Positions 9,560 to 36,630 are shown, counted from the first letter of the stretch. The stretch is DNA of 64,000 bases from Escherichia coli (GCF_044324785.1 NZ_CP172127.1), one strand, 5' to 3'. Program-made: numbers and translations. Notes: generated from the letters alone by a model not told the origin.

Positions 9560-9685
9560 AAGCGTCTCCTTTACCATAGTTAATGTCACCGCTTGATATG
9601 AGCGTGAAAATCACTCAATGCGATATTTTTAGTGTGGTGCACATCGCGCCTCCCGACAAAGTTCGGGAGGACGAATTACGACGAA

Positions 9686-10291
9686 TTACTTAGTTTTCAG
9701 ATCATTTTTAACGCTTTTCACACCATCTACCGCTTTGGCGATACTTTCAGCACGGTCACTTTGTGCCTGAGAATCTACGGTACCGGAGAGCTGAACCACG
9801 CCATCGGTGGTTTCAACTTTCACATGACGGGAAGGGACGATATCGTCCGCCAGCAGTTTGGCTTTGATTTCACTGGTGGTGGCGGTGTCACCCGCGTAGC
9901 CCTTCACAGAGCCTTCTTTAGCGTCGCGAACGTGCAGTTTGTCGCTGACAGAGGTCACGCCTTCAACGCCTTTGGCCACTTTCACTGCCTCTTCGGCCTG
10001 GGCCTGGCTTTCAACGAAACCGCTCAGGGTCACGACTTTTTGATCGGTTTTGACAGAGATATCGGTGCTCTTGATGTTGTCATGATCCACCAGGGCCGCC
10101 TTCACTTTCGCTGTGATGGCGCTGTCATCCATGAAATTACCGACTTTATTCATAGAGCTATCGACTTTTTGCCCTGCGCTTTCATTGGTAGTCTGTGCGT
10201 TGTTTTCCGCGTAGGCAGAGCCGGTCGCGACGGCAGAGGTCAACATTACAGCCAGCAGAGTTTTCGAAATCTTCAGTCTTGTCATAGTCAT
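9686..10291 (-). CDS. osmY: Osmotically inducible periplasmic protein OsmY (201 aa, two BON domains)
   Basis: Protein [50 protein letters not shown]... with signal peptide; internal start chosen. Confidence 0.95.
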
Positions 10292-10647
10292 CGATTTATT
10301 CCTGTATGTTTGCTCGTAATTTGAGCCTGGCAACACGAGGTTGCATTGCTGAATAGGGAGAGACTTCACCCTCTACAGAAGTCAATGGTCGCCATCACAA
10401 AAGCGATGGGTGATGAATAACGACCATTACAGCCTCTGAATCAGTTATTAATATCGGTAGAATGACAATCGACGGCTTTAGATACTGATATCTACGCATT
10501 GAACGGTATTTAACGCCGTCAGAAATGTCATTACTTTGTTAAATATAGATCACAATTTTGAAACCGCTCGGGATATCAGCTAAAACATAAGCAAAAGTGA
10601 ATGTTTTAAGAACATTCCGTAAGCGGCTAATAAGGAAGGGAAATTGA

Positions 10648-10673
10648 CAGGGCGCAGCGGCTACCGCGCCCTG
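10648..10673 (-). terminator. Probable terminator downstream of prfC
   Basis: Hairpin cagggcgc-(loop)-gcgccctg immediately after the prfC stop codon. Confidence 0.5.
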
Positions 10674-10683
10674 GAGGCAAGAA

Positions 10684-12273: not shown

Positions 12274-12363
12274 AATTCTTTCTTCTTGAGTAAGCGGCAT
12301 CGCGCCGCGCTTGTTGAAAACGAAAAATTGCGGCTATTTTACCCATCAACGGGGGGGAGGCAA

Positions 12364-13041
12364 TCAGTGTTTACACAGGAGCTGCTCCAGTTCGTGCAAC
12401 GAAGAAACGGTCCAGGTGGGCGCGATGCCTTCTGGTTGCTCGCGATTGTGCGTATTCAGCCAGCAGGTCGCAAGCCCGGCGTTGATGCCACCGAGAATAT
12501 CGGACTCGGCAGTGTCGCCAACCATCAGCACGCGTGAACGGTCAGGATTGCCCGCCTGTTCCAGCGCATAATCGAAAATTTTCTTATTCGGTTTGGCAAC
12601 GCCAACTTCTTCGGAAATCACCAGCAAATCGAAGTAATCACGCAGGCCCGTGCGTTCCAGACGCACTTGCTGCAAGGCGCTAAAGCCGTTGGTGATGATG
12701 CCAATTTTAGCATTGCCACGAATGGCGTTAAGCAGAGAAACCGCGCCCGGCAGCGGCGTACAGATTTCCGCCATCGCATTAATAAAGGCTTCGTTGAGTT
12801 TACCCGGCTCGACGTTCAGCCGTTCGGCCCAGCTCTCAAACCGCCCGTGCTGAAGCTGTAATGAAGTGATCGCGCCGTTTTGATAATCCACCCACAGTGG
12901 CTTGTTAACGGCCTGATAGTCCTGAAAATCTTCAGCGGTAAAGGTGACGCTGTAATCAAGAAACATCCGCTGCAGGCCGGTGAATGAGTCAAAGGTAAAC
13001 AGCGTTTCATCGGCATCAAAGAAAATCCAGTCCCACTTCAT
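12364..13041 (-). CDS. yjjG: HAD-family pyrimidine 5'-nucleotidase YjjG (225 aa)
   Basis: [23 protein letters not shown]... (HAD DxDxT motif). Confidence 0.9.
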
Positions 13042-13055
13042 TATTCCACCTTGTC

Positions 13056-13502
13056 TTACATACTGATTGGCAACGCCATGATGATGGCGTCTTCGCGACC
13101 GTCCGTGGTGGGGTAGTAATTGCGGCGAATCGTCGCCTCGTTAAAGCCTAAACTTTCGTACAGGGCAATGGCGGCAGCGTTTGAAGCACGGACTTCCAGC
13201 CATAGTGTCGCCACGCCGCGTTTTTCCAGTTCGTCGATCAGATGTTCCAGCAGCGCCCTTCCCAATCCCTGACGCTGATAGTCAGGATCGACCGCAATAT
13301 TGAACAATGTAGCTTCATCCAGCACCACTTGCGTAATCGCAAACGCCGCCATTTTGCCGTTTTGCGTTAACTGAAAGTTGAGATAACGCTCGCCCTGGTT
13401 GCTGGCAAAGGTTTTTTCACTCCACGGAAAGGCGTGGGCGCGTTGTTCAATGTGGTAAGCCGCTGGTAAATCAGTCGTTTCGAGGGAAGAAATCGTGTTC
13501 AT
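13056..13502 (-). CDS. rimI: Ribosomal protein S18-alanine N-acetyltransferase RimI (148 aa)
   Basis: GNAT-fold [35 protein letters not shown]... Confidence 0.9.
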
Positions 13503-13884
13503 ATGTGCAAATTTGTTGCCATAACGCGGCGCGTGCCGTTGGGTTTGCCCGTAATTCGGTGAGCGCCGGTGATGCCACCTGAGCGCCTTCCAATGATAGC
13601 GGTTCGTCAGTACCCAACCGCCAGCTGTTGCAGCGACTGCCTTGCGGCAGCATCGCGATTTTTTCTGGCGTCAGTTGCAGCACTTGATCGGGGCTGACGG
13701 TTAATGCGCGCAGAACATCGCTCACTAAAGGATCAGTCAGGGCGGGAAGATCGTTTGCCACCATCACCAGACGGACGTGTGCCGGGATCGCAATGGCAAT
13801 CTCCCCCTGCAACGCGCCAGGGCGACGCAGCGACCACTGGGTAATGCCCAGTTGCTGTAACTGCCAGTCTCGTCGGGATGTCAT
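13471..13884 (-). CDS. holD: DNA polymerase III psi subunit HolD (137 aa)
   Basis: ORF MTSRRDWQLQQLGITQWSLRRPGALQGEIAIAIPAHVRLVMVANDLP...; 3' end overlaps rimI start by 32 nt. Confidence 0.9.
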   Translation of the reverse strand: MTSRRDWQLQQLGITQWSLRRPGALQGEIAIAIPAHVRLVMVANDLPALTDPLVSDVLRALTVSPDQVLQLTPEKIAMLPQGSRCNSWRLGTDEPLSLEGAQVASPALTELRANPTARAALWQQICTYEHDFFPRND

Positions 13885-13986
13885 AGCGAATCGCTCCTGT
13901 TGTCAGGGGCGCAAATATAGCAAATTCGTCGATACCGCGCCAACATATGGCTATAATCGCCGCCAGTATCAATTGAGGAGCATTCC

Positions 13987-15018
13987 ATGTCTGCATTTAC
14001 CCCGGCAAGTGAAGTCTTGCTGCGTCACAGTGATGATTTCGAACAAAGCCGTATTCTGTTTGCCGGAGACTTACAGGATGACCTGCCCGCGCGTTTAGAT
14101 ACCGCGGCCAGCCGTGCTCATACCCAGCAATTCCACCACTGGCAGGTGTTAAGCCGCCAGATGGGGGATAACGCCCGTTTTAGTCTGGTCGCCACGGCGA
14201 ATGATGTCGCAGATTGCAATACGCTGATTTACTACTGGCCGAAGAACAAACCGGAAGCCCAGTTCCAGTTGACGAATTTACTTTCTCTACTGCCGGTGGG
14301 CACGGATATTTTTGTCGTTGGCGAGAACCGCAGCGGCGTGCGCAGCGCCGAACAGATGCTGGCAGATTATGCGCCGTTGAATAAAGTCGACAGCGCCCGT
14401 CGCTGTGGCCTCTATTTTGGTCGTCTGGAAAAACAGCCGGTATTTGATGCCGATAAATTCTGGGGCGAATACAGCGTCGATGGCCTGACGGTCAAAACGC
14501 TGCCGGGCGTGTTTAGCCGCGACGGTCTGGATGTCGGTAGCCAGTTACTGCTCTCGACGTTAACTCCGCACACGAAAGGTAAAGTGCTGGATGTCGGCTG
14601 TGGCGCGGGCGTGCTTTCTGTTGCCTTTGCGCGCCATTCACCGAAAATTCGTCTCACTCTGTGCGATGTCTCTGCGCCAGCGGTAGAAGCCAGCCGCGCA
14701 ACACTTGCCGCCAACGGCGTTGAAGGTGAAGTCTTTGCCAGTAACGTCTTTTCCGAGGTGAAAGGTCGTTTTGATATGATCATCTCCAACCCGCCGTTCC
14801 ACGATGGGATGCAAACCAGCCTCGATGCGGCGCAAACGCTGATTCGCGGCGCGGTGCGTCATCTTAATAGCGGCGGCGAGCTGCGAATTGTAGCGAACGC
14901 CTTCCTGCCTTATCCGGACGTGCTGGATGAGACATTTGGCTTCCATGAAGTTATCGCGCAAACCGGGCGCTTCAAGGTGTATCGCGCCATTATGACCCGC
15001 CAGGCGAAGAAAGGTTAA
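13987..15018 (+). CDS. rsmC: 16S rRNA (guanine1207-N2)-methyltransferase RsmC (343 aa)
   Basis: [35 protein letters not shown]... with SAM-binding [12 protein letters not shown] and NPPFH motifs. Confidence 0.9.
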
Positions 15019-21941: not shown

Positions 21942-24233
21942 TTGTCAGAACTACTCTCTTTCGCCCTTTTTCTCGCCTCTGTGCTGATTTACGCATGGAA
22001 AGCGGGACGTAACACCTGGTGGTTTGCAGCCACGTTAACGGTGCTGGGGCTATTTGTCGTTTTAAATATCACCCTGTTTGCCAGCGACTATTTTACTGGT
22101 GATGGTATTAACGACGCGGTTCTCTATACCTTAACCAACAGCCTGACCGGTGCTGGCGTCAGCAAATACATTCTTCCGGGTATCGGCATTGTGCTGGGGC
22201 TGACGGCGGTGTTCGGTGCGCTGGGCTGGATCCTGCGCCGTCGTCGTCATCATCCGCACCATTTTGGTTACAGCCTGCTGGCACTCTTACTGGCGTTGGG
22301 TTCAGTGGATGCCAGCCCGGCATTTCGTCAGATAACGGAACTGGTGAAATCCCAGTCACGCGATGGCGACCCGGACTTTGCGGCTTATTATAAAGAGCCG
22401 TCGAAAACTATCCCTGACCCGAAACTCAACCTGGTTTATATCTACGGCGAAAGTCTCGAGCGGACCTATTTTGATAACGAAGCTTTCCCGGATCTCACGC
22501 CTGAACTGGGCGCGTTGAAAAATGAAGGCCTGGATTTCAGCCACACGCAGCAGCTGCCAGGAACGGATTACACGATTGCGGGCATGGTGGCTTCTCAGTG
22601 CGGCATACCGCTGTTTGCCCCCTTTGAAGGCAACGCCTCCGCCTCTGTCTCCAGCTTCTTCCCGCAGAACATCTGTCTGGGCGATATCCTGAAAAACTCG
22701 GGTTATCAGAACTATTTCGTGCAGGGCGCGAATCTGCGTTTTGCCGGTAAAGATGTGTTCCTGAAGTCGCACGGCTTCGACCACTTATACGGCTCAGAAG
22801 AGCTGAAAAGCGTGGTGGCCGACCCGCACTATCGCAACGACTGGGGATTCTACGACGATACCGTTCTCGATGAAGCGTGGAAAAAGTTTGAAGAGCTTTC
22901 CCGCTCAGGTCAGCGATTCTCACTGTTTACCCTGACAGTCGATACCCATCACCCGGATGGTTTTATCTCGCGTACCTGTAACCGCAAAAAATATGATTTT
23001 GACGGTAAGCCGAATCAGTCATTCAGCGCGGTAAGTTGCAGCCAGGAGAATATCGCGACGTTTATCAACAAAATCAAAGCGTCACCGTGGTTTAAAGATA
23101 CCGTCATCGTCGTCTCTTCTGACCATTTAGCGATGAACAACACGGCGTGGAAATACCTCAATAAACAGGATCGCAATAACCTGTTTTTTGTCATCCGTGG
23201 CGACAAGCCGCAGCAAGAGACGCTGGCGGTGAAGCGTAACACGATGGATAACGGCGCGACGGTGCTGGACATTCTCGGTGGCGATAACTATCTCGGACTT
23301 GGTCGTAGCAGTTTATCCGGGCAGTCGATGTCGGAAATCTTCCTCAATATCAAAGAGAAAACATTGGCGTGGAAGCCGGATATCATCCGCCTGTGGAAAT
23401 TCCCTAAAGAGATGAAAGAGTTCACCATCGACCAGCAGAAAAACACGATTGCCTTCTCGGGTAGCCATTTCCGTTTGCCGCTGCTGTTGCGGGTTTCAGA
23501 CAAGCGCGTAGAACCGCTGCCGGAAAGTGAATACTCAGCACCGCTGCGTTTCCAGCTGGCCGATTTCGCTCCACGCGACAATTTCGTCTGGGTTGACCGT
23601 TGCTACAAGATGGCACAACTCTGGGCTCCGGAACTGGCACTCTCCACCGACTGGTGTGTCTCGCAGGGGCAGCTTGGCGGTCAGCAAATTGTTCAGCATG
23701 TTGACAAAACAACATGGAAGGGCAAAACGGCATTTAAAGATTCGGTCATCGACATGGCGCGTTACAAAGGCAATGTCGATACGCTGAAGATTGTTGATAA
23801 CGATATCCGCTACAAAGCCGACAGTTTCATCTTTAACGTCGCCGGTGCGCCGGAAGAGGTGAAACAGTTTAGCGGGATTTCTCGTCCGGAGTCGTGGGGC
23901 CGCTGGTCCAACGCACAGCTGGGCGACGAAGTAAAAATCGAGTACAAGCATCCGCTGCCGAAGAAATTTGACCTGGTGATTACCGCCAAAGCATACGGCA
24001 ATAACGCCAGCCGTCCTATTCCGGTACGCGTAGGCAATGAAGAACAAACTCTTGTGCTGGGCAATGAAGTGACCACCACCACGCTGCATTTCGATAACCC
24101 AACCGATGCCGACACGCTGGTAATTGTGCCGCCGGAACCTGTCTCAACCAACGAAGGGAATATCCTCGGACACTCGCCGCGTAAGCTCGGGATCGGCATG
24201 GTGGAAATTAAAGTGGTAGAACGTGAAGGGTAA
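21942..24233 (+). CDS. opgB: Phosphoglycerol transferase I OpgB/MdoB (763 aa, sulfatase-like)
   Basis: [39 protein letters not shown]...; apparent TTG start. Confidence 0.9.
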
Positions 24234-24370: not shown

Positions 24371-25393
24371 TCAGAAAGTAATTACACCCTTAATCAACTC
24401 ACGATTGTTAATCACATCGCGCTCGTAGGTTTCTGCCAGCGTGGCGAACGGATAGCGATGGGTTAACATCATGTCAGCAGTGATTTTTCCTTCCGCCATC
24501 AGTCGACCGACTTTAGCAAAATCTTCCGGCGTGGCGTTGCGGCTGCCCATCATCGTCGTTTCTTTTTTATGGAATTCCGGATCGGAGAACTGCAACTCAC
24601 CTTTAAACAGGCCGACAAATACCACCGTGCCGCCGTGACGAATCAGATTCACGGTGTTATTCATCGCATGTTGATTACCTGTCGCGTCGATCACTTTCTG
24701 CGCCAGCGAACCACCAAACTGCGCCCGCAGCTGCGCGTCAAAATCTTCGGCTGACGGGTCCAGCACGGGCAACTCCAGACGCGTTGCCACATGTTCACGG
24801 CGCGCCGGACTGGTATCCGCCACCACTACCTGTGCGCCATCGGCTTTAGCGATTGCCGCCGCGCCCAGACCGATTGGCCCCGCCCCGACCACCAGCACCT
24901 GCTCGCCGGGAGCAATGGCTGCGCGACGCACCGCATGAGCGCTAATCGCGAAAGGTTCAATCAATGCTGCCGCCTGCGGGTCAATACCGTCTGCGGGCAA
25001 AATGTTCGCCACCGGCACGCTCAAATACTCACTAAAACCGCCATCCTGATGCACGCCAATGACTGAAATTTTTTCACAGCAATTGGTACGCCCGCTTTTA
25101 CACGCCGGGCATTGCTGACAAGAAATATACGGAATTACCGCAACTTGCTGTCCGATATTAAAATTGTGAATGTTTTTTCCTGATTCAATAATCTCCCCAC
25201 ATATTTCATGGCCTAAAACGCGTGGATAACTAAAAAATGGTTGATTGCCCGCCCAGGCATGAATATCTGTACCGCAAATCCCGACGGTTTTAATTTTAAT
25301 TAATGCTTCGTTATCGCCTGGCACCGGTCTTTCCCGGACTGTCCATACTAAATTCTTTATTTCCTGACAAATTAATACTTTCATTGTGGACAT
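24371..25393 (-). CDS. lgoD: Zn-dependent L-galactonate 5-dehydrogenase LgoD/YjjN (340 aa)
   Basis: MDR-family ORF MSTMKVLICQEIKNLVWTVRERPVPGDNEALIKIKTVGICGTDIHAW... Confidence 0.85.
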   Translation of the reverse strand: MSTMKVLICQEIKNLVWTVRERPVPGDNEALIKIKTVGICGTDIHAWAGNQPFFSYPRVLGHEICGEIIESGKNIHNFNIGQQVAVIPYISCQQCPACKSGRTNCCEKISVIGVHQDGGFSEYLSVPVANILPADGIDPQAAALIEPFAISAHAVRRAAIAPGEQVLVVGAGPIGLGAAAIAKADGAQVVVADTSPARREHVATRLELPVLDPSAEDFDAQLRAQFGGSLAQKVIDATGNQHAMNNTVNLIRHGGTVVFVGLFKGELQFSDPEFHKKETTMMGSRNATPEDFAKVGRLMAEGKITADMMLTHRYPFATLAETYERDVINNRELIKGVITF

Positions 25394-25531
25394 GATTCAC
25401 CGCTCCTTTTATTTTATGACTTTCAGATATCGTCGAATTTATAAGAGCGCCTGAATTTACCCATAAAATATGCGGATGATCACGCATAAAAATGTTTTAA
25501 ATCGGTTTTTAATGCCGGACTGGAGGGAAGA

Positions 25532-26437
25532 ATGAGTCGTTCGCAGAATTTACGTCATAACGTCATAAATCAGGTGATTGAAGATATGGCGAGGGGCAAT
25601 ATTCCTTCTCCGCTGCCTTCACAAAGTGGGCTGGCAGAAATGTATAACATCAGTCGCACTACGGTACGCCACATACTCCAGCATTTAAGCGCATGTGGCG
25701 TGCTCACCCTGGTGGGGAAAAATTATGTTATCGCCCGCAAACCCGAACAGAACGATGGATTTGATTGCATCACGGCCTCGCTGAAAGAGCAAAACCGTCT
25801 TTTCGAGCAGGCATTTTTCACCATGATTAACCTGCGCCAGTTACGCGCGGGAGAAAGCTTTTCCGAACTTCAGCTGGCGCGAGCGGCAGGCGTCAGTCCG
25901 GTAGTAGTACGAGAATATCTTTTGAAATTCGGTCGTTATAATCTTATTCAAAGCGAAAAGCGCGGCCAGTGGAGCATGAAGCAGTTCGATCAATCCTACG
26001 CCGAGCAACTGTTTGAGCTACGCGAAATGCTCGAAACACATTCCCTGCAACACTTTCTCAACCTTCCCGATGACGATCCCCGCTGGTTGCAGGCGAAAAC
26101 CATGCTCGAACGTCACAGGACATTGCGCGACAGCATTGGCAGCAACTTTCGGATGTTTTCTCAATTAGACCGTGATTTTCATGCCATGCTGTTATCCGCT
26201 GCTGACAACATCTTTTTTAATCAATCACTTGAAATTATCTCGGTGATCTTTCATTTTCACTATCAATGGGATGAAAGCGATCTCAAGCAGCGCAATATCA
26301 TTGCTGTTGATGAGCATATGACCATTCTCAGCGCCCTGATTTGCCGTAGCGATTTAGATGCAATAACGGCATTGCGAAACCATCTGGATACCGCCAAACA
26401 ATCAATGATTCGTTCCATCAGGCAACATCACCGATAA
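25532..26437 (+). CDS. lgoR: GntR-family transcriptional regulator LgoR/YjjM
   Basis: ORF with N-terminal GntR-type HTH (GLAEMYNISRTTVRHILQHLSACGVL). Confidence 0.8.
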   Translation: MSRSQNLRHNVINQVIEDMARGNIPSPLPSQSGLAEMYNISRTTVRHILQHLSACGVLTLVGKNYVIARKPEQNDGFDCITASLKEQNRLFEQAFFTMINLRQLRAGESFSELQLARAAGVSPVVVREYLLKFGRYNLIQSEKRGQWSMKQFDQSYAEQLFELREMLETHSLQHFLNLPDDDPRWLQAKTMLERHRTLRDSIGSNFRMFSQLDRDFHAMLLSAADNIFFNQSLEIISVIFHFHYQWDESDLKQRNIIAVDEHMTILSALICRSDLDAITALRNHLDTAKQSMIRSIRQHHR

Positions 26438-26607
26438 ATTAAGTACAGATTAAAAACATTGATTCTTGGTTTATATCACTATGTTGTATTAATGCAGTAT
26501 TAATCCAGGCGATTGTTCTGCCTATAAGGAAATACATAGGGAATAAACGATGCTGGAAGTATTACTCTCAGCCATCATTTAACTCCCTATTACTGGTAGC
26601 GATAAAA

Positions 26608-28281
26608 TTATCGGCTATCCATGATTAACGTTTCCAGCACATCTAATTCACTGACTATTTTTGCCAGTGTTTCATCACTGACTTCTTGCCGTGCACGCAT
26701 CTGGTAAATAGCCGCACGCCTGGCATTTAACGCTGCCAGATTAAATGTTCTTTCCAGCTTCGCGCGCTGCATATGTAAAGAATTATCATTTTCCGACATA
26801 TCATCTTCGCTACGCCGCATATAACCGATAACTCTGGCCCCTGTTTCCATAATCAACTCGTTGTCGAGGTTTTCTGTACTGGTGCGTAGCAAACGTTGCT
26901 CAGTCTTTTGCACACTGAGTATGGCCATTTTGGCCATAAACAGATCGGCAGCTTCCTCTTCTTTTTGCCGGTTATCGCTGAAAATGCCCACATTTTTCCC
27001 CAGTAGTAACGGCAGAATAATAATGCCGCAAACCAGCGAAAAGAGGATCACACCTGTGGCGAGAAATACCAGTAAGTAACGCCCGGGAAAAGATGTGCCA
27101 TCCGGCAGCAATAACGGGATAGAAAGCACCCCCGCAAGCGTGATGGCTCCGCGCACCCCCGCAAAGGTCGCCAGCAGCATATGACGCGTTTTATATCCAG
27201 CAAACAGCATCGGATGTTTGCCGGGTCGTTTACGGCTATACAGACGCATCAGCCAAAGCCAGCCCAAGCGCACAACCATTAACGCCAGGTAGATCCAAAT
27301 GACATCAAGGAGCAGCGATCCGGTGTCTACCAGTGGATCGTTTTCTGCACGGATCAGTGATTCCGTAATAATGCCCGGCAGTTGTAAGCCTAAAATCAGA
27401 AACACCATGCCGTTAAAGACATATTCAAGCATCGACCAGCTACTTTTAGCTTTAATTCTCAGGCGAATAGGCGCGTGGTGGACTACGCCAATGCGACTGG
27501 TTGTTAACCCCGCGGCGACAGCGGCAAGAATGCCAGATAAGCCAAAATGTTCCGCAACCAGATAAACAATAAACGGCAACAGAAGCATCAATACAATCTG
27601 AATGGAAGGTTCATCGTGAGCATATCGACTGATCAACAGCAGCCCTTTGCCATATAACCAGGTAACAGCGATCCCCACGGCAATACCGCCCAACGCAACG
27701 ACAAAAAACGCAATGGTTGCGCCATGAACGCTGAATTCCATCGTTCCCATCGTCACTGCAACAGCAAATTTCAACGCCACCAAGCCGGAAGCATCATTCA
27801 TCAACGCTTCGCCTTCGAGCACTTCCTGGATGTTTTTGCTGATACGCCCTTTCCCGACAATCCCCAGCAACGCCACGGCATCGGTAGGCGACAACACGGC
27901 GGCTAATGCGAAAGCAGCGATGAGCGGCACATTCGGTAAGAGTAAATGAATCACATAGCCGACACCAAAAATAGTGATTAGCACCAACACAAGCGCCAGG
28001 CTGACAATTTCCCGACTGTGCTTGATCAATTCTTTAGGTTGTATTTTTGAGCTTTCAGCAAACAACAAGGGGGGTATAAACAATAAGAGAAAAAGTTCAG
28101 GATTGAATTCCACATGCAGACCAAATATGGGCTGGGCCAGTATAGCGCCAGCGGCAATCTGGATTAAAGGAAGTGGTATCTGAACAGGAGACAGACGCGT
28201 AAGCACGCTGGTTAATGATACTACCAACGTAAGAATTAAAATTGTTAAAAGTATTTCCATATAATAAACAGGCTTCCTCAT
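26608..28281 (-). CDS. CPA1-family Na+/H+ (cation/proton) antiporter
   Basis: 557-aa polytopic ORF with Na_H_exchanger-like motifs (...AAVLSPTDAVALLGIV...EGEALMNDASGLVALKF...) and a soluble C-terminal domain; true start may be the internal MEILLT. Not expected at this position from K-12 synteny. Confidence 0.75.
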   Translation of the reverse strand: MRKPVYYMEILLTILILTLVVSLTSVLTRLSPVQIPLPLIQIAAGAILAQPIFGLHVEFNPELFLLLFIPPLLFAESSKIQPKELIKHSREIVSLALVLVLITIFGVGYVIHLLLPNVPLIAAFALAAVLSPTDAVALLGIVGKGRISKNIQEVLEGEALMNDASGLVALKFAVAVTMGTMEFSVHGATIAFFVVALGGIAVGIAVTWLYGKGLLLISRYAHDEPSIQIVLMLLLPFIVYLVAEHFGLSGILAAVAAGLTTSRIGVVHHAPIRLRIKAKSSWSMLEYVFNGMVFLILGLQLPGIITESLIRAENDPLVDTGSLLLDVIWIYLALMVVRLGWLWLMRLYSRKRPGKHPMLFAGYKTRHMLLATFAGVRGAITLAGVLSIPLLLPDGTSFPGRYLLVFLATGVILFSLVCGIIILPLLLGKNVGIFSDNRQKEEEAADLFMAKMAILSVQKTEQRLLRTSTENLDNELIMETGARVIGYMRRSEDDMSENDNSLHMQRAKLERTFNLAALNARRAAIYQMRARQEVSDETLAKIVSELDVLETLIMDSR

Positions 28282-28940
28282 TCATAAATAATGGATATTA
28301 TTAATTTAACTTCATAAAAAGCGCCCTGGTTAGCACTTAACGTTAATCATTAATCACAGCGTTCACTCACATGCTCAGGAGGAAACCAGTGAGATGAGTT
28401 TTCCCGTTGATAACAAATTCACCATGTGAATATTTACTACCTTTAACCGTTGTAACGAATCATCCGTTACTCTTTGATCTCCTTGCCGAACAAGTTGTTT
28501 AGTGAATGATGGCTTTCTTTTAACGTCAGCATGAATTATACGTTCAGCAAATGTATTAAATCAGCACTAAATAAATTTAATGGATACCACCATTCTGCGT
28601 CAACACTTAGTTTTTATCTGTAAAAATAGCCGCAGCCAAATTAATGCTTTTATTTTTAATAAATCATCAACCGAATAAGAGATCTTATCAGCGGTAACTA
28701 AACTCATCAGTGGGTGTTCCTTGTAACGTCATACATTACATAACTTTAAGATATACAATCAAAAAATGCATTAAAAACCGATTAAAAGCAGCAAAGTATT
28801 ACCCGGTGCACGAATTTATGACACATTTGCAGCCATTCCGCTATTCACTGACTACTTTTCAGTAATGACTGCTTTTTCATAAGGTTTCACTCCCGACAAC
28901 AATGTTGGAGTTTTATTTCCTTAGCATGGAGTAAGTAAAG

Positions 28941-29912
28941 ATGAGCAAAATAATAGCGATGCTAATTACTGTCAGTACCCTTTTTTTACCGTCAATAATC
29001 CAGGCAAAACCTATTTCGATAAAAGTTGCCTATGAAAATAACCCTGGAGAACCCCTGGATGTGGTCATGCGTTACTGGGCAGACCTATTAAATAAAAAAA
29101 GTAATGGCGAAATAACACTTGCGCTCTATCCAAGTTCCCAATTGGGCTCAAAACAGGATGTCACCGAGCAAGCCATGATGGGCATGAATGTCATAACCTT
29201 GAGTGATGTGGCCTTTCTTGCCGATTATGAACCCGATTTGGGTATTTTGTTTGGACCGTATCTGACTGACGATCCGCAAAAACTGTTCAAAATATATGAA
29301 AGCGACTGGTTTAAACAAAAAAATGAAAGTCTGAAGAAAAAGGGAATTCATGTGGTAATGAATAATTATCTCTATGGCACTCGACAGATTATTTCGAAAA
29401 AACCCATTCGCACTGTTGACGATCTCGCAGGCTTAAAAATTCGTGTTCCTAATAACGTCATGCAAATAAAAGCCATTCAGGCGATGGGGGCAACACCAAC
29501 TCCCATGCCATTAGGCGAAGTTTATCCCGCATTAACCCAGGGCGTTATTGACGGCGTAGAAAACCCAATTTCAGTGCTGCAAGGGCAAAAACTGTATGAG
29601 CAGGCAAGATATCTGACAATGGTTAACTACCTGACAAATACCTCAGTATGGATAGGTGGTGAAGCCTTCTTTAGCACCCTTTCACCAGAACAACTGGAGA
29701 TGATCCACCAGACCGGCTATGAAGCGGGTGTCTATAGCCAGAAACTCACTCTTGAACGTGATGCCGAAATGTTGAAAACCATGCAGGCAGCGGGCGTCGA
29801 AGTGATCTATCCCGATACTGGACCATTCCAGAAGAAAGCACGCGAAGTTTACTCTCAATTCCCGGAATGGACACCAGGTCTGTACGAAACCATTCAACAG
29901 CAACTGCAATAA
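28941..29912 (+). CDS. TRAP transporter solute-binding protein (DctP family)
   Basis: 323-aa ORF with signal peptide and DctP-like organisation; followed by small and large TRAP permease genes. Confidence 0.8.
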   Translation: MSKIIAMLITVSTLFLPSIIQAKPISIKVAYENNPGEPLDVVMRYWADLLNKKSNGEITLALYPSSQLGSKQDVTEQAMMGMNVITLSDVAFLADYEPDLGILFGPYLTDDPQKLFKIYESDWFKQKNESLKKKGIHVVMNNYLYGTRQIISKKPIRTVDDLAGLKIRVPNNVMQIKAIQAMGATPTPMPLGEVYPALTQGVIDGVENPISVLQGQKLYEQARYLTMVNYLTNTSVWIGGEAFFSTLSPEQLEMIHQTGYEAGVYSQKLTLERDAEMLKTMQAAGVEVIYPDTGPFQKKAREVYSQFPEWTPGLYETIQQQLQ

Positions 29913-29975
29913 GCATTAATGCTCAGCGTCCTGCCTCATCTCTCTTAGGCAGGACACGCACTAACAGGAGGTTTC

Positions 29976-30449
29976 ATGCGTCTTTTTGGCAAAGTGGCAG
30001 AATTTAGTGCTGCCTTTGCGCTATTCGTTCTGGTTGTGATGACAATTGGAGCGGTATTTATGCGTTATTTCATCGGCCAACCGCTTCAATGGACAGAAGA
30101 AATGTCGGGAATGCTGATGATTTGGGTGGTGATGTTAGGTGGAGTAGTGGCGGAACGTGACAGGGCGCACCTGACCATTCCCTTCCTGATGGAGATGCTT
30201 CCAGGCAAGCTCAGGCGTGTTATTGCAGTACTGGTCGCCGTTCTCTCCATCGCACTGCTGCTGTATATGGCCTGGCTGGGCTACCGACTAGCCGAAATGG
30301 CGCAGTTTAAAGTGACACAAATTCTGAAGGTTTCCTGGTTCTGGATCGATCTGGCGGTCCCTGTCGGTGCACTGGCAACGGCTATTTATACCCTCTACTG
30401 GTTAATACACGATATAAAACAATCCGATAGCGGAGACAAAATGCAATGA
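29976..30449 (+). CDS. TRAP transporter small permease (DctQ family)
   Basis: 157-aa four-TM ORF; stop overlaps the start of the large permease. Confidence 0.8.
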   Translation: MRLFGKVAEFSAAFALFVLVVMTIGAVFMRYFIGQPLQWTEEMSGMLMIWVVMLGGVVAERDRAHLTIPFLMEMLPGKLRRVIAVLVAVLSIALLLYMAWLGYRLAEMAQFKVTQILKVSWFWIDLAVPVGALATAIYTLYWLIHDIKQSDSGDKMQ

Positions 30450-31717
30450 GTTGGTTATTGATTATTCCGCTAATGATCGTCTGTTTGTTTCTCAACATTC
30501 GGGTCTATCTGGCGATGTTTATTGGCATCATCGCTTACTTTTTATTCTTCTCCAGCGTACCGATTGAAATTGCCGTGCAAAGACTGATCGCGCCAACGCA
30601 AAGCCCATCATTGCTGGCAATTCCGTTTTTTATCTTGCTCGGCACACTAATGAGCTACACCGGCATTGCCGAACGCATCCTGCACATTGCCAATGTTCTG
30701 GTGGGGAAAATGCGCGGCGGACTGGGCGTGGCAAACATTCTCGTCAGCACCATGATGGGCGGCGTCAGCGCCTCTAACCTTGCTGACGCGGCGATGCTGT
30801 CGCGCATGATGGTGCCGGAGATGGAGCGTAAAGGCTACAATCGCGCGTTTGCCGCCGCCATTACCGCTGGTGGCTCGTTAGTCACCCCGATCATACCGCC
30901 GGGAATAGCCCTGATTATTTACGGTCTGGTTGCCGACGTCTCTATCGGAAAAATGTTTATCGCCGGACTGGTACCTGGTTTGCTATGCGCAGTCGTATTG
31001 ATGTTTACCGTCTACCTGGTCGCCCGCAAAACTAACGCCAAACCCTCGCGTGAAAGCTGGCCTACGGGCAAAGAGGTGGTGTTCTCGCTGGGACAGGCCT
31101 GGCCTGCGCTGTTCCTCATTTTTGCTGTGGTGGGTGGTATTCGCGCTAACATTTTCACCCCAACAGAAGCAGGCGCAGCAGCGGTGTTAATCGTGCTGGC
31201 GATTGGCTTTTTTATCTATCGTGAAATGCGGATTTCTCATGTCGTCAAAGCATTGGGCGAAACGGCACGCGCTACCGCATCGGTGATGCTGGTAATCATG
31301 GCCAGCGCCGCGTTGGGATGGATTTTCTCAATGGAACATGCTGGTGTCGCAGTGGCGAATTTTGTGACTTCGCTGACCGAAAATAAATATATGTTCCTGT
31401 TGATTATCAACATATTGCTGCTGACGCTGGGGATGTTTCTTGAAGGAAACGCCATTTTGCTGATCCTGGTACCACTATTAAAACCGGTGGTCGAACACTT
31501 TGGCATCGATCCGGTGCATTTTGGCATCATCATGATCTTCAACCTGTCGATTGGCGCATTCACGCCACCGGTAGGTACCGTGATGCTGCTGGTATGTAAC
31601 ATCACGCAAGTTTCGGTGGGAAATTTCTTTAAACAATCCCTACCCCTACTGGCGGCTCTCCTGTTAATGCTAATGCTGGTGACATATATCCCGGCGATTT
31701 CACTGTTCCTGGTTTAA
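30446..31717 (+). CDS. TRAP transporter large permease (DctM family)
   Basis: 423-aa polytopic ORF typical of DctM; ATGA overlap with the DctQ gene. Confidence 0.8.
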   Translation: MSWLLIIPLMIVCLFLNIRVYLAMFIGIIAYFLFFSSVPIEIAVQRLIAPTQSPSLLAIPFFILLGTLMSYTGIAERILHIANVLVGKMRGGLGVANILVSTMMGGVSASNLADAAMLSRMMVPEMERKGYNRAFAAAITAGGSLVTPIIPPGIALIIYGLVADVSIGKMFIAGLVPGLLCAVVLMFTVYLVARKTNAKPSRESWPTGKEVVFSLGQAWPALFLIFAVVGGIRANIFTPTEAGAAAVLIVLAIGFFIYREMRISHVVKALGETARATASVMLVIMASAALGWIFSMEHAGVAVANFVTSLTENKYMFLLIINILLLTLGMFLEGNAILLILVPLLKPVVEHFGIDPVHFGIIMIFNLSIGAFTPPVGTVMLLVCNITQVSVGNFFKQSLPLLAALLLMLMLVTYIPAISLFLV

Positions 31718-31725
31718 TAATAAAA

Positions 31726-31752
31726 ACGCCGGATGAAATACTCATCCGGCGT
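31726..31752 (-). terminator. Terminator shared by tsr and the convergent TRAP operon
   Basis: 11-bp stem acgccggatga / tcatccggcgt with 5-nt loop between the convergent stop codons; U-rich flank on the minus (tsr) strand. Confidence 0.65.
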
Positions 31753-31759: not shown

Positions 31760-33415
31760 TTAAAACGTTTCCCAGTTCTCCTCGCTATCTGCCACAGCCA
31801 TTTTACGCGGCGTAGCTGGCGTCACGGTTTTTACCACAGCCGATGTTTCACGCTGATGTTGCTGAATCCGGAACACTGCCACAGCTTCGGTCAGGCGACT
31901 GGCCTGCTCTTCCAGCGCGGCGGCGGCGGCGGCAGATTCTTCCACCAGCGCGGCGTTCTGTTGAGTTACCCGGTCCATCTCAGCAACCGCTAAGCCAACC
32001 TGATCGATACCACGGCTCTGCTCATCAGAAGCAGAAGCAATTTCGCCCATAATGTCCGTCACGCGGGTCACTGCGCTGACAATCTCCGCCATTGTTTCCC
32101 CGGCGCTTTCGACCAGCGTAGAGCCAACATCCACTTTCCCCACCGAGTCTTCAATCAGGCTTTTAATTTCACGAGCCGCCTGGGCGCTGCGCTGGGCCAG
32201 ATTACGCACTTCTCCCGCGACCACCGCAAAACCGCGCCCTTGCTCACCCGCACGCGCAGCCTCAACCGCGGCGTTCAAAGCCAGAATATTGGTCTGGAAG
32301 GCAATGCCGTCAATTACGCTGATAATATCGGCGATTTTCTGCGAGCTGGTGGAGATATCGCGCATAGTCTGCACCACGTTATCTACCACTTTGCCGCCAC
32401 GTTGCGCCGTTTCAGAAGCACTTAACGCCAGGTGGCTGGCCTGGCGCGCATTCTCGGCGTTCTGTTTCACCGTTGCGGTCAGTTGCTCCATGCTGGCTGC
32501 CGTCTCTTCCAGCGAAGCGGCCTGTTGCTCGGTGCGCGAAGAGAGATCGTTATTGCCGGTGGCGATTTCGCTGGCACCGCTATAGATGGCATTGGCCCCG
32601 TTGCGCACATCACCGACGGTACGCATTAGCTCTCCCTGCATATGGCGCAAACTCTCTGCCAGTTGCCCCATCTCATTAGAGCCATCCACCTCAATCGGTT
32701 TCACCAGATCGCCGCCTGCAATATGACGAATGCTGTCAATCAGGCGATTCATTGGCGCTACCAACGAGGCTTTAATACCGAACCAGACGGCGAAGATGAC
32801 CGCCAGTACGACGATCATCACGCCCACCAGGATCCACATCGCCTGGCTGTAGGAGGCATTATTATCGCTGACGGCGATATCATAGAGCCGATCGTTTTGC
32901 TCCATGTAAGCCACATACTGCTTCTCGAAACCGTCCTGATATCCCTGGGTCGGCTGATCAAAGAACTCGTTGATTTTGCCTGCACCTAACAGTTGGATCA
33001 GCTCCGCCAGCGCATTGTGATAAATATCGTAATTACGTTTGATCTCTGCCGCTGCGGCGGTGCTCTGACGCGGGTCACGCGGCAACGCTTCGTAATCCGC
33101 CCAGTTTTTTTCCGCCTGTTTCAGCGAAATACTGGCACTCTGCATCAGCTCAGCAACGGTTGAACCGCTACCAATATTATTCTGATCCATCATGTAGCGG
33201 ATACCCGCGCGGTTGAGGGTGTTACGCGTCTGCAACAACGCGACCCAGCTGCCATTCAGCGTGGATTGCTGCTGGCGAATGGTTTGTAAAACAGTGAAAT
33301 TTTCTTTGTCATTCTTTAAGGCATTAAAGAACAGACCGCCTGATGTCAGTTGTAAAAGGCCAAAAACGGCCAAAACCAGCAGTAAGCTGGTCACAATTTT
33401 GATACGTTTTAACAT
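31760..33415 (-). CDS. tsr: Methyl-accepting chemotaxis protein I (serine chemoreceptor Tsr, 551 aa)
   Basis: [43 protein letters not shown]... with highly conserved MCP signalling domain and C-terminal NWETF pentapeptide. Confidence 0.95.
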
Positions 33416-33644
33416 GGTTTCTCTTTCCTGTGGACCGATGCAAGATTTTCGGCCTGGAAAGGAAAAACTTTATAGTCAACGTCATTATCACCGTCGAACA
33501 TAATTCGTTTTGTTTCATTTTTGTACAAAGCTAAGAGCGTCATGAATAAAAAAATTAATCTTGTTTATTTATTTCACGCTATTTATCGCAATTTTGCACA
33601 ATGATGCATCGTATGATGCGCGTTTTAAAGAAAGGATATCTGAT

Positions 33645-34187
33645 ATGTTAAACCGTGATTTTGATCATCTATCAACCCTGCTCCATCTTTTTTTTGAGCG
33701 TGACGATATTTGCCAAAAGCTTAATATTATTGATCAAAACGAGATCACCGGCTGGGAAGTTTGGTTCCAGGTGGAGTTTGCTAATATGCTTTGCTCAACA
33801 GACCATGAATGGTGGCGTGAACAAACACTATCCTGTGATATGCGCAAAAAGCCCGAGCGCCCCACCCTACGTACAGATTTTTTATTACGCAAAAAAGGCT
33901 GGGCACAAGATAGCTATATTGCGCTTGAAATTAAACAGAACAGAGATGCGACAAGTTGTGTTAAAAATATGATCGCAGACTTAGAGAAAAGCGCCAAAAT
34001 TAAACGTTCTGAGCTTGATTTGCGTAGTTTCTGGACTTTAGGTATTACTCCGATGATCGACAGAGAAAGACTGAACTCTCTCATCGACAGTTATTTAGAT
34101 GAGAAATTCTATCTTACTAAATCTCGTAAAAAACACGTTTTACTTAAAGAAATAAAAAATACACCATATTGCTATATTGTTATTTAA
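33645..34187 (+). CDS. Hypothetical protein, possible PD-(D/E)XK nuclease fold (180 aa)
   Basis: ORF in an AT-rich islet; start chosen at ATG 33645 with AAAGGA Shine-Dalgarno 9 nt upstream (track ORF begins 33561). Contains E...D-x14-E-x-K pattern (WEVWFQVEF ... RTDFLLRKKGWAQDSYIALEIK). No recognised K-12 counterpart. Confidence 0.5.
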   Translation: MLNRDFDHLSTLLHLFFERDDICQKLNIIDQNEITGWEVWFQVEFANMLCSTDHEWWREQTLSCDMRKKPERPTLRTDFLLRKKGWAQDSYIALEIKQNRDATSCVKNMIADLEKSAKIKRSELDLRSFWTLGITPMIDRERLNSLIDSYLDEKFYLTKSRKKHVLLKEIKNTPYCYIVI

Positions 34188-34479
34188 CATTTACGGCATG
34201 AATATAATTTTTAGATGAGTAACACAACTGAGGGCTAAAACTCGCCTTGGTTGTGATCATCATCACATAAATAGCCTTCATAAACCTTGCTCAATACCGC
34301 TCAACCGCAAAACTGACCGCTTACATCCCTAAAATAACCACTCAGTTATTTACCTTACTTTACGCGCGCGTAACTCTGGCAACATCACTGCAGGATAGCG
34401 GTCAATTTACCTCCTCAAACGCAACGCAAACCTAGAACGGCTTCGGCCAACTATTAATCAATACATGCCAGGTTTTACT

Positions 34480-36630
34480 ATGGATACTAAAAAGATATTC
34501 AAGCACATACCCTGGGTGATTCTCGGAATCATCGGTGCATTCTGCCTCGCGGTAGTTGCATTACGTCGGGGGGAGCACGTCAGCGCCCTGTGGATCGTGG
34601 TCGCCTCTGTGTCGGTGTATCTGGTGGCGTATCGCTACTACAGTCTGTACATCGCCCAGAAGGTAATGAAACTCGACCCCACGCGCGCGACGCCTGCGGT
34701 TATTAACAACGACGGTCTGAACTACGTTCCGACCAACCGTTACGTGTTGTTTGGTCACCACTTCGCCGCTATCGCCGGTGCCGGTCCGCTGGTTGGTCCG
34801 GTGCTCGCCGCGCAGATGGGCTACCTGCCTGGCACGCTGTGGCTGCTGGCGGGGGTCGTGCTGGCCGGTGCGGTACAGGACTTTATGGTGCTGTTTATCT
34901 CCTCTCGCCGTAACGGCGCATCTCTCGGTGAGATGATCAAAGAAGAGATGGGACCAGTACCGGGGACTATCGCGCTGTTTGGCTGTTTCTTAATCATGAT
35001 CATCATCCTCGCCGTCCTGGCGCTGATTGTGGTTAAAGCCCTGGCCGAAAGTCCGTGGGGTGTCTTCACCGTTTGCTCAACCGTACCGATTGCGCTGTTT
35101 ATGGGTATCTACATGCGCTTTATCCGTCCGGGGCGTGTGGGTGAAGTCTCTGTCATTGGTATCGTGCTGCTGGTTGCCTCTATCTACTTCGGTGGCGTGA
35201 TTGCACACGATCCGTACTGGGGTCCGGCACTGACCTTTAAAGACACCACCATTACCTTCGCGCTGATTGGCTATGCGTTTGTTTCCGCACTGCTGCCAGT
35301 GTGGCTGATCCTCGCACCGCGCGACTATCTGGCAACCTTCCTGAAAATCGGTGTTATCGTCGGCCTGGCGCTGGGTATCGTGGTGCTCAACCCGGAACTG
35401 AAAATGCCTGCGATGACTCAGTACATTGACGGTACTGGCCCGCTGTGGAAAGGCGCTCTGTTCCCGTTCCTGTTCATCACCATCGCCTGTGGTGCGGTAT
35501 CTGGCTTCCACGCGCTGATCTCTTCCGGTACGACGCCGAAACTGCTGGCTAATGAAACCGACGCGCGTTTCATCGGTTATGGCGCAATGCTGATGGAGTC
35601 CTTCGTGGCGATTATGGCGCTGGTTGCAGCGTCCATCATCGAACCGGGTCTTTACTTCGCGATGAACACCCCGCCTGCGGGCCTTGGCATCACCATGCCT
35701 AACCTGCATGAAATGGGTGGCGAGAACGCGCCGATCATCATGGCGCAGTTGAAAGACGTTACCGCACACGCGGCGGCGACCGTCAGCTCCTGGGGCTTCG
35801 TGATTTCGCCAGAGCAGATCCTGCAAACCGCGAAAGACATTGGTGAGCCTTCTGTCCTGAACCGTGCAGGTGGTGCGCCGACACTGGCGGTAGGTATCGC
35901 TCACGTGTTCCATAAAGTGCTGCCAATGGCTGACATGGGCTTCTGGTATCACTTCGGTATTCTGTTCGAAGCCCTGTTCATCCTGACCGCGCTGGATGCC
36001 GGTACCCGTTCTGGCCGCTTTATGCTGCAAGACCTGCTGGGTAACTTCATCCCGTTCCTGAAAAAAACCGACTCTCTGGTTGCTGGTATCATCGGTACTG
36101 CGGGTTGTGTGGGTCTGTGGGGCTACCTGCTGTATCAGGGCGTGGTCGATCCGCTGGGCGGCGTTAAGAGCCTGTGGCCGCTGTTCGGTATCTCCAACCA
36201 GATGCTGGCAGCCGTGGCGCTGGTACTGGGTACCGTTGTGCTGATTAAGATGAAGCGCACCCAATACATCTGGGTAACTGTTGTTCCGGCTGTATGGCTG
36301 CTTATCTGCACCACCTGGGCGCTGGGCCTGAAACTGTTCAGCACCAACCCGCAGATGGAAGGCTTCTTCTACATGGCAAGCCAGTACAAAGAGAAGATTG
36401 CTAACGGTACTGACCTGACGGCGCAGCAGATTGCCAACATGAACCACATCGTTGTGAACAACTACACCAACGCAGGCCTGAGTATTCTGTTCCTGATTGT
36501 GGTGTACAGCATCATCTTCTACGGTTTCAAAACCTGGCTGAAGGTGCGTAACAGCGACAAACGTACTGACAAAGAAACACCGTACGTTCCAATCCCGGAA
36601 GGCGGCGTGAAGATCTCTTCGCACCACTAA
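34480..36630 (+). CDS. btsT: CstA-family pyruvate/H+ symporter BtsT (YjiY, 716 aa)
   Basis: Protein MDTKKIFKHIPWVILGIIGAFCLAVVALRRGEHVSALWIVVASVSVYLVAYRYYSLYIAQKV...; internal start chosen. Confidence 0.9.
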   Translation: MDTKKIFKHIPWVILGIIGAFCLAVVALRRGEHVSALWIVVASVSVYLVAYRYYSLYIAQKVMKLDPTRATPAVINNDGLNYVPTNRYVLFGHHFAAIAGAGPLVGPVLAAQMGYLPGTLWLLAGVVLAGAVQDFMVLFISSRRNGASLGEMIKEEMGPVPGTIALFGCFLIMIIILAVLALIVVKALAESPWGVFTVCSTVPIALFMGIYMRFIRPGRVGEVSVIGIVLLVASIYFGGVIAHDPYWGPALTFKDTTITFALIGYAFVSALLPVWLILAPRDYLATFLKIGVIVGLALGIVVLNPELKMPAMTQYIDGTGPLWKGALFPFLFITIACGAVSGFHALISSGTTPKLLANETDARFIGYGAMLMESFVAIMALVAASIIEPGLYFAMNTPPAGLGITMPNLHEMGGENAPIIMAQLKDVTAHAAATVSSWGFVISPEQILQTAKDIGEPSVLNRAGGAPTLAVGIAHVFHKVLPMADMGFWYHFGILFEALFILTALDAGTRSGRFMLQDLLGNFIPFLKKTDSLVAGIIGTAGCVGLWGYLLYQGVVDPLGGVKSLWPLFGISNQMLAAVALVLGTVVLIKMKRTQYIWVTVVPAVWLLICTTWALGLKLFSTNPQMEGFFYMASQYKEKIANGTDLTAQQIANMNHIVVNNYTNAGLSILFLIVVYSIIFYGFKTWLKVRNSDKRTDKETPYVPIPEGGVKISSHH

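Follow-up and report, generated by a model that had tools for sequence, protein, structure and literature searches.

Organization of the lgo locus

[quoted passage not shown] The gene order, established from an open reading frame (ORF) listing, NCBIfam and Pfam scans, and the RefSeq annotation of the near-identical strain N3, is opgB-lgoD-lgoR-CPA1-dctPQM-tsr-btsT, with CPA1 on the minus and dctPQM on the plus strand; that of K-12 MG1655 is opgB-lgoD-lgoR-lgoT-tsr-btsT. An earlier interpretation of this DNA (the sequence-only reading) had placed the four transporter genes where the ORF and profile searches also find them, and its account of the K-12 order, with lgoT between lgoR and tsr, is correct by comparison with MG1655.

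The TRAP genes are arranged in the order P-Q-M, and the ORF listing shows no ATPase gene among them. The first, dctP (28941–29912, plus strand), encodes the periplasmic solute-binding protein (PF03480, E 1e-65; TIGR00787, 179.5 bits against a cut-off of 175.05; NF037995, 177.7 bits against a cut-off of 50), dctQ (29976–30449, plus strand) the small membrane subunit (PF04290, E 2e-30), and dctM (30446–31717, plus strand), which overlaps dctQ by 4 bp, the large membrane subunit (PF06808, E 3e-109; TIGR00786, 397 bits against a cut-off of 268). Residue R168 of DctP is invariant in a 35-sequence alignment and lies close to SiaP residue 146–147 as judged from the HMMER alignment offset, Arg147 of SiaP being the carboxylate-clamping arginine. 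The characterised SiaPQM TRAP transporters are Na+-coupled. Transcribed divergently from dctPQM is a gene for a full-length Na+(K+)/H+ antiporter of the CPA1 family that is paralogous to YjcE (TIGR00831 a_cpa1, 526 bits against a cut-off of 279.6; PF00999, E 2e-63 over residues 14–419); its ORF occupies 26608–28281 on the minus strand, and the annotated start gives 26608–28260 and 550 amino acids. The spacer between the two transcription units (28261–28940) had been described previously as AT-rich, and the description holds, with 33–34% G+C whether it is counted from 28261 or from 28282.

To the left of these genes are lgoD (24371–25393, minus strand), encoding the L-galactonate 5-dehydrogenase (top NCBIfam match PRK10083), and lgoR (25532–26437, plus strand), encoding a GntR/FCD-family regulator (PF00392, PF07729). 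The locus is bounded by opgB (21942–24233, plus strand) on one side and by tsr (31760–33415, minus strand) and btsT (34465–36630, plus strand) on the other. Between the convergent dctM and tsr genes, a GC-rich hairpin, CGCCGGATGA-N5-TCATCCGGCG (31727–31751), can be read from the sequence and is probably a bidirectional terminator; it forms the right end of the segment that differs from K-12, homology to which restarts at 31752, and K-12 has another hairpin at the equivalent position.

Extent of the replaced block

Comparison with MG1655 by blastn shows that 5,293 bp of the window (26459–31751) occupy the place of 1,599 bp that carry lgoT in K-12, and no homology to the K-12 lgoT segment was found in the aligned region. 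The departure from K-12 extends further to the left, as seen from the sliding nucleotide identity, which is 66–92% (about 80%) across 25121–26458 and 97–100% in the flanks, the left one being 98–99% identical up to 25121. Within this stretch lie lgoR in full, the promoter region shared by lgoD and lgoR, and lgoD up to about codon 100. LgoR is 86.5% identical to its K-12 counterpart in amino acid sequence and 81% in nucleotide sequence; LgoD is 93.8% identical, with 20 of the 21 differences falling within the first 100 residues, such that residues 1 to ~100 are about 80% identical and the remainder nearly identical. By this comparison lgoD is a chimera in which codons ~101–340 match the usual E. 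coli type and those from 1 to ~100 form part of the divergent block; the Prokaryotic Genome Annotation Pipeline (PGAP) labels this LgoD allele only as a zinc-binding alcohol dehydrogenase family protein. The complete divergent or replaced block, as delimited by identity to K-12, runs from 25121 to 31751 and includes the 5′ end of lgoD, the promoter region, the lgoR allele, CPA1, the spacer and dctPQM. The unit that differs is evidently a block of about 6.6 kb with a regulator, a promoter region, an antiporter and a TRAP operon, and thus more than a transporter gene. The proposal that lgoD and lgoR are conserved here consequently needs qualification: both are present in place and in the same orientation, but LgoR is only 86.5% identical, LgoD is chimeric, and the regulator and the shared promoter region lie inside the swapped block.

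A TRAP transporter in the place of LgoT

The relationship of this TRAP operon to the lgo genes is seen most directly in Citrobacter amalonaticus, where the order is opgB-lgoD-lgoR-dctPQM-tsr, lgoR and dctP are 185 bp apart, and CPA1 is missing; nucleotide identity to E. coli is 75–80% and similar across all genes of the locus. The binding protein itself has close structural relatives. DctP matches PDB entry 4OVT with an E value of 6e-147 and 70–73% identity and entry 4O8M with an E value of 9e-81 and 42% identity, and its AlphaFold model (predicted local distance difference test score, pLDDT, 90) has a template modelling (TM) score of 0.90 to 4ovt_A and of 0.88–0.90 across the 4OVT and 4O8M structures, which take Foldseek ranks 1 to 4.

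A TRAP system with dual specificity for L-fuconate and L-galactonate, from an lgoD-uxaA-uxaB locus, is mentioned with reference to Vetting et al. (2015) in PMC5507952. A similar setting is found in Brucella thiophenivorans, in which NCBIfam annotation places dctPQM after genes for a tagaturonate-reductase-like (UxaB-like) protein, a GntR regulator, a member of the altronate/galactarate dehydratase family (UxaA-like) and a Zn-dependent dehydrogenase; the best NCBIfam match of the last is PRK10083, as for LgoD. Among 65 loci with DctP relatives, drawn from alpha-, beta- and gamma-proteobacteria including Pseudomonas, Lampropedia, Azospirillum and Accumulibacter, 57 have an LgoD-like dehydrogenase, 42 a UxaA-like dehydratase and 32 a UxaB-like reductase, although many of these loci come from closely related Brucella species and are not independent, which lessens the weight of the counts.

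Uptake of L-galactonate, and perhaps also of L-fuconate, by dctPQM is therefore well supported by comparison, through the position in LgoT's slot, the adjacency of lgoR and dctPQM in C. amalonaticus, the kinship with 4OVT and 4O8M, the LgoD/UxaB/UxaA contexts and the exclusion with lgoT described below; the suggestion in the sequence-only reading that the TRAP system is an alternative L-galactonate route gains accordingly. The explanation that best accounts for the whole, to which we assign a probability of roughly 70%, is that the window carries an alternative lgo allele in which the H+-coupled major facilitator superfamily (MFS) permease LgoT has been replaced by a TRAP transporter. DctP would capture L-galactonate, and probably also its 6-deoxy analogue L-fuconate, in the periplasm, DctQM would then import the captured sugar acid, and LgoD would oxidise L-galactonate to D-tagaturonate, which would enter the core UxaB/UxaA pathway.

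A candidate regulatory box

The lgoD/lgoR divergent promoter region contains a conserved 32-nucleotide box, CGCATAAAAATGTTTTAAATCGGTTTTTAATG (25483–25514, plus strand), which is a candidate operator. The box is nearly invariant in both E. coli alleles, Escherichia albertii, an Escherichia sp. and C. amalonaticus, whereas identity over the remaining spacer is about 66%. An inverted copy of the box's 3′ half is found about 150 bp upstream of dctP (28768–28790, plus strand), a candidate co-regulation site; the 23-nucleotide pair is 91% complementary, and the dctP-upstream copy is identical in strain CFT073. The exact 15-mer CATTAAAAACCGATT occurs in the 64 kb only at 25500–25514 and within 28768–28790, with 0.27 occurrences expected. 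A weaker copy, an inverted match of 83%, lies right after the lgoR stop codon (26438–26460, plus strand), within the last stretch homologous to K-12 and C. amalonaticus, the alignments to both of which end at 26458. In a position weight matrix (PWM) scan of the window, the dctP-upstream site ranks second (12.8 bits) and the post-lgoR site third (10.7 bits), the best background match scoring 9.8 bits; a PWM scan of C. amalonaticus found no second box site.

In K-12, lgoR and lgoT have been described as a single operon that is divergent from lgoD (PMC5934670). In the window, the opposite-strand CPA1 gene separates dctPQM from lgoR, and we infer that the box is a candidate LgoR operator that may restore the co-regulation of dctPQM. 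The transporter would travel as one block of ~6.6 kb together with LgoR, the promoter region between lgoD and lgoR, and the initial 100 codons of lgoD, and the box copy upstream of dctP would probably hold the TRAP operon under lgoD/lgoR control.

We also note a perfect inverted repeat, TATGCG-N8-CGCATA (25469–25488), immediately upstream of the 32-nucleotide box. It is present in the window allele and, with one change, in CFT073, and is not found in the K-12, E. albertii and C. amalonaticus spacers; it is perhaps a regulatory site specific to the allele, or else a small hairpin resembling a terminator.

The CPA1 antiporter and its spacer

The cassette antiporter belongs to a rare CPA1 clade that is about 59% identical to YjcE-type proteins from other enterobacteria, with its nearest relatives (77–78%) in Edaphovirga, Klebsiella sp. 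I138 and Limnobaculum. Its translated sequence contains the stretches SPTDAVA and ALMNDASG, which are presumed to be the TD and ND ion-site motifs of transmembrane segments 4 and 5 (TM4 and TM5). CPA1 and the AT-rich spacer make up a 2,469-bp segment (26459–28927) that is missing from the C. amalonaticus locus, and no CPA1 gene lies within 10 kb at any of the 65 loci fetched around DctP relatives. Because C. amalonaticus and these 65 loci are without CPA1, the antiporter does not appear to be an obligatory partner of the TRAP system, and CPA1 with its spacer is, as far as the alignment indicates, a separate and later insertion between lgoR and dctP. CPA1 is predicted to be a functional antiporter, yet one separate from the TRAP system. 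The spacer is 94–100% conserved between two E. coli haplotypes and contains no ORF longer than 51 amino acids. A structured RNA was considered and rejected, there being no Rfam match, as was a plasmid origin, for which the only match is one chromosome filed as a plasmid.

The sequence-only reading had suggested that the antiporter serves the Na+ gradient of the TRAP system, and in its fullest form this would be a Na+-cycle module, in which the transporter imports a sugar acid with Na+ and the divergent CPA1, sharing a 680-bp control region with it, expels Na+ in exchange for H+. Such a module is compatible with the replacement of LgoT by a TRAP transporter. The divergent pair and its single spacer are kept in both E. 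coli haplotypes, with a ratio of nonsynonymous to synonymous substitution (dN/dS) of 0.09 for CPA1, the presumed ion-site stretches are in place, and SiaPQM transporters set a precedent for Na+ coupling. Elsewhere, in Klebsiella sp. I138 and Limnobaculum, CPA1 genes 77% identical to this one are divergent from an adjacent, unrelated TRAP operon (DctM 27% identical) that has a GntR regulator, another relative (78%) adjoins a DASS-family (Na_sulph_symp) transporter, and the neighbours of yet another, on a plasmid-like stretch, are MATE genes. Such repeated pairing hints at a link between CPA1 and Na+-coupled transport, in what is a tiny sample. However, these are only two independent types of arrangement, adjacency of transporter genes is common, E. 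coli already has NhaA, NhaB, ChaA and YjcE, and the lgoR-dctPQM arrangement of C. amalonaticus, like all 65 DctP-relative loci, does without the gene, which in E. coli forms, with its spacer, a separate 2.5-kb insertion. The coupling proposal is thus weakened by the loci related through DctP and keeps some footing in those related through CPA1, and we regard the module as possible, at well short of even odds.

A broader extension is more doubtful still, and we think it unlikely: that CPA1 and the TRAP genes form a co-regulated Na+-cycle unit, and that lgoT and TRAP constitute a long-lived balanced polymorphism between a low-cost, H+-coupled permease and a Na+-coupled, high-affinity scavenger with its own Na+ extrusion, suited to different host niches (e.g. 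those of the extraintestinal pathogenic strain CFT073 and of Shiga-toxin-producing O26/O145 strains). Were it true, a textbook case of pangenome ‘gene avoidance’ would come down to allelism at the transporter slot downstream of lgoR.

Evidence against L-galactonate and other possible substrates

Several observations weigh against the assignment of L-galactonate as the substrate. The ligands of 4OVT and 4O8M are here presumed to be L-fuconate and L-galactonate. The Zn-dehydrogenases beside the distant DctP orthologues are only 33–36% identical to LgoD, and the dctP-upstream motif stands only slightly above background in the PWM scan (12.8 against 9.8 bits). In Edaphovirga cremea, the neighbours of a DctP that is 83% identical are, in place of lgo genes, those for a DeoR regulator, a class II aldolase and an acid-sugar kinase of the DUF1537 type, and therefore the specificity of DctP may drift within the clade. 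The literature search found no experiment on the E. coli lgo TRAP system, and the only growth data found on L-galactonic acid lactone are positive results for DSM 30083T and Nissle 1917, yet both of these strains carry lgoT.

The TRAP system might then import another acid, such as L-fuconate only, a tetronate (e.g. D-threonate), L-gulonate or a hexuronate, with dedicated L-galactonate uptake having been lost. Besides the Edaphovirga context and the generic zinc-binding label that PGAP gives to LgoD, this alternative draws on a second TRAP system of E. albertii and some E. coli, 72–73% identical, which is accompanied by a different enzyme set (RraA-like aldolase, short-chain dehydrogenase/reductase (SDR), dehydratase and Zn-dehydrogenase). 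However, lgoD and lgoR remain intact beside the TRAP genes and are under strong purifying selection, the C-terminal 240 residues of LgoD are of the same type as in the K-12 enzyme, lgoR and dctPQM are directly adjacent in C. amalonaticus, and the context of the orthologues is mostly LgoD/UxaB/UxaA. We consider a different substrate distinctly improbable, and L-galactonate uptake through the TRAP allele remains the preferred interpretation.

The second TRAP operon is itself an accessory element, found in E. coli SCPM-O-B-8794, E. albertii, E. whittamii and 106 complete E. coli genomes (e.g. NZ_AP017620.1, at ~755 kb). Its DctP is 72–73% and its dctM ~72.5% identical to those of the window, it adjoins gltA and sdh in E. 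albertii, and it is preceded by genes for a GntR regulator, an RraA-like aldolase, a Zn-dehydrogenase, an SDR and a UxaA-like dehydratase. The operon may belong to a non-phosphorylative route for the use of a sugar acid, 6-deoxy or otherwise.

Frequency and mutual exclusion with lgoT

The CPA1-dctPQM cassette, counted as present at an identity of at least 95%, is found in 864 of 5,426 complete E. coli genomes (count range 856–864), or about one strain in six, and so is not peculiar to the genome from which the window comes; lgoT is found in 4,520 of the 5,426, and these counts, with the published exclusion, point to its absence from genomes that bear the cassette. Two haplotype groups can be distinguished, one of 231 genomes at least 99% identical to the window, including Shiga-toxin-producing E. 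coli (STEC) of serogroups O26, O103 and O145, and one of 633 genomes at ~97.5%, including CFT073. An island specific to phylogroup B2 was considered and rejected, as the cassette is also present in O26, O103 and O145 STEC and other non-B2 strains, and some B2 strains have lgoT.

A 2023 pangenome study in PNAS reports, in the passages relevant here, that lgoT and a set annotated nhaK/siaP/siaT never co-occur, that mdtM is associated with lgoT, and that redundancy, toxicity or competition may cause such avoidance; these passages make no mention of the two sharing one locus (PMC10769857). The exclusion can be accounted for by allelism, because both systems fill the same lgoR-tsr interval, and no selection against co-occurrence is required: one homologous replacement at lgoR-tsr necessarily removes the other system. 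Linkage likewise accounts for the association of lgoT with mdtM, which lies ~25 kb from the lgo locus on the same side and is present in the window at 51–57 kb. Close relatives within sequence type 73 (ST73) differ at the locus, CFT073 (NZ_CP158446.1) having the cassette and Nissle 1917 lgoT (scored in NZ_CP022686.1, assembly CP007799 being scrambled), and the B2 type strain DSM 30083T has lgoT together with LgoD, LgoR, LgoT, Tsr and BtsT proteins identical to those of K-12. The difference between CFT073 and Nissle 1917 and the K-12-identical proteins of DSM 30083T indicate, as far as sequence comparison can, a recent recombinational exchange of the region between phylogroups. Negative epistasis, in which lgoT and the cassette avoid each other because the two together are harmful or redundant and not because they are alleles of one site, is one of the causes raised in the published study, and redundancy is plausible if both systems import L-galactonate. 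The occupation of a single interval, the linkage of mdtM and the swapped state of the two ST73 strains all fit allele replacement, and we hold epistasis to be very improbable.

Origin and maintenance of the block

The K-12 allele is evidently the native Escherichia one. The 5′ part of K-12 lgoD is 89.7% identical to those of E. albertii and an Escherichia sp., matching the distances of their opgB genes (88–90%), both of them have lgoT, and orthologues of LgoT occur widely among Enterobacterales. In the window, the 5′ part of lgoD is 75–80% identical to those of K-12, E. albertii, the Escherichia sp. and C. amalonaticus alike. The left junction coincides in the window and CFT073 haplotypes, dense mismatches beginning at 25121 in each, and synonymous divergence (dS) between them within the block is 0.05–0.12, equal to that of the flanking genes. 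A recent transfer from C. amalonaticus was rejected: its dctPQM genes, at 78% identity, resemble those of the window no more closely than the flanking core genes do, and its lgoR is as far from one E. coli allele as from the other. We infer that homologous replacement brought the block into E. coli on one ancient occasion, the donor being a related but unsampled enterobacterium. The block would have persisted for a long time since then, and recombination in the core genes that flank it would have shuffled it from lineage to lineage.

Between the window and CFT073, dN/dS is 0.024 for lgoR, 0.019 for dctP, 0.021 for dctM, 0.09 for CPA1 and 0.24 for dctQ, and in comparison with C. amalonaticus it is 0.02–0.06; lgoD, lgoR and all three TRAP genes are under strong purifying selection. 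That the cassette is a non-functional, hitch-hiking remnant is barely credible, since nothing was found in its favour beyond the lack of experimental data, no reading frame is disrupted in the window, N3 or CFT073, and dN/dS is 0.02–0.09 over a dS of 0.05–0.12 and 0.02–0.06 against C. amalonaticus.

Other arrangements of the slot and other variable segments

Several assemblies show further arrangements downstream of lgoR. In GCA_015160575.1 (JADDTD010000016.1, 8001–9653), a hybrid antiporter gene encodes an N-terminal ~300 residues that are YjcE-like (56–72% identical to the window CPA1) and a C-terminal ~250 residues 96–100% identical to the window CPA1, and it links uvrA-ssb-soxSR-ghxP directly to lgoR-lgoD-opgB. 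The hybrid is a deletion-type recombination product of yjcE and the cassette CPA1, which lie ~310 kb apart in direct orientation; such junctions occur in several draft or metagenome assemblies and in none of the 5,426 complete genomes. A low-coverage contig (ENA ERZ772887 NODE_2969, 3.3×) has non-E. coli flanks, with opgB 82% identical and a uxaB-like gene beside lgoD; its lgoD and the 5′ part of lgoR are 70–82% identical, and after an abrupt switch inside lgoR it is 99–100% identical to window positions 26124–30400, where the contig ends, covering the 3′ end of lgoR, CPA1, the spacer and dctP. Such a switch would reflect either a cassette passed between species very recently or chimeric assembly at low coverage. 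A Citrobacter-like scaffold (ENA ERZ28659802 scaffold_1577, 9001–14602; ~78% nucleotide identity) has lgoR, an enolase-superfamily (MR_MLE) dehydratase gene, an MFS permease gene and tsr, and in metagenome contig L073 dctP, the spacer and the N-terminal part of CPA1 at 85–87% identity (spacer ~87%) are followed by LysR-LrgAB-actP-yjcH. Taken together, these arrangements point to a slot downstream of lgoR whose content varies across enterobacteria, being filled by lgoT, by dctPQM, by CPA1 with dctPQM, or by a dehydratase with an MFS permease.

Other parts of the window also depart from K-12. The tsr/btsT gap contains a second indel (33474–34296), with ~820 bp of AT-rich DNA (36–40% G+C) compared to 137 bp in K-12; it includes a 208-amino-acid ORF (33561–34187) without a Pfam match, and the matching region of strain N3 is annotated as a frameshifted hypothetical protein. 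The segment 37851–49229 has no megablast match to the K-12 restriction region (mrr, hsdRMS, symE, mcrBC, yjiT-yjiS), with homology resuming at yjiS/yjiR, and the yjiK/yjiJ region (60169–62197) is 81.6% identical to K-12 compared to ~96% for the adjoining mdtM-yjiL, and may be a further divergent-allele block like that at lgoR.

Implications and comparison with known systems

The genes themselves are already annotated in RefSeq, the binding-protein family was structurally characterised in 2014–2015, and the exclusion pattern is published; what the present comparison contributes is to explain that pattern by allelism, to show how far the block really extends, to trace it to one introgression and to set the antiporter apart from the TRAP operon. 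If the TRAP allele does serve L-galactonate, about one-sixth of E. coli strains would take up a gut- and plant-derived sugar acid by other energetics, with periplasmic capture and probably Na+ coupling, metabolic models in which L-galactonate enters via lgoT alone would miss this route, and competition for a scarce nutrient could be affected. A published case of gene ‘avoidance’ would have a positional, allelic explanation, with a regulator and promoter swapped along with the transporter. The practical consequence would be modest, and no new mechanism is implied unless coupling to the antiporter is real.

Among known systems, the nearest in position and pathway is LgoT (YjjL), the MFS L-galactonate:H+ symporter of K-12, which occupies the same slot after lgoR and near lgoD as the TRAP genes, shares their predicted substrate and pathway, and has a mutually exclusive distribution. 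However, LgoT is a single MFS polypeptide of an unrelated family, whereas the TRAP system is a three-component, binding-protein-dependent transporter that would capture its substrate in the periplasm with high affinity and probably be coupled to Na+ instead of H+, and the TRAP allele, unlike lgoT, brings its own lgoR allele and promoter region. The nearest in structure are Oant_3902 of Ochrobactrum anthropi (4OVT) and Asuc_0158 of Actinobacillus succinogenes (4O8M), which share the fold and family of the E. coli DctP and reportedly come from the Enzyme Function Initiative screen of Vetting and colleagues in 2015. The Brucella/Ochrobactrum orthologues of DctP lie within an LgoD/UxaB/UxaA-like cluster; the E. 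coli operon has CPA1 as its partner, whereas 4OVT/4O8M-type systems are without it in the fetched flanks. YiaMNO, the 2,3-diketo-L-gulonate transporter and sole TRAP system of K-12, is likewise a sugar-acid importer in a catabolic locus, but it is distant (DctM scores 238 bits against the YiaN model, cut-off 800, and DctQ 38 bits against that of YiaM, cut-off 260) and has another locus and another substrate. Finally, YjcE, the resident CPA1 antiporter of E. coli, shares its family and length with the cassette CPA1, and hybrids of the two genes occur in drafts, but the latter is a distinct and rare paralogue that lies at another locus, beside a TRAP operon.

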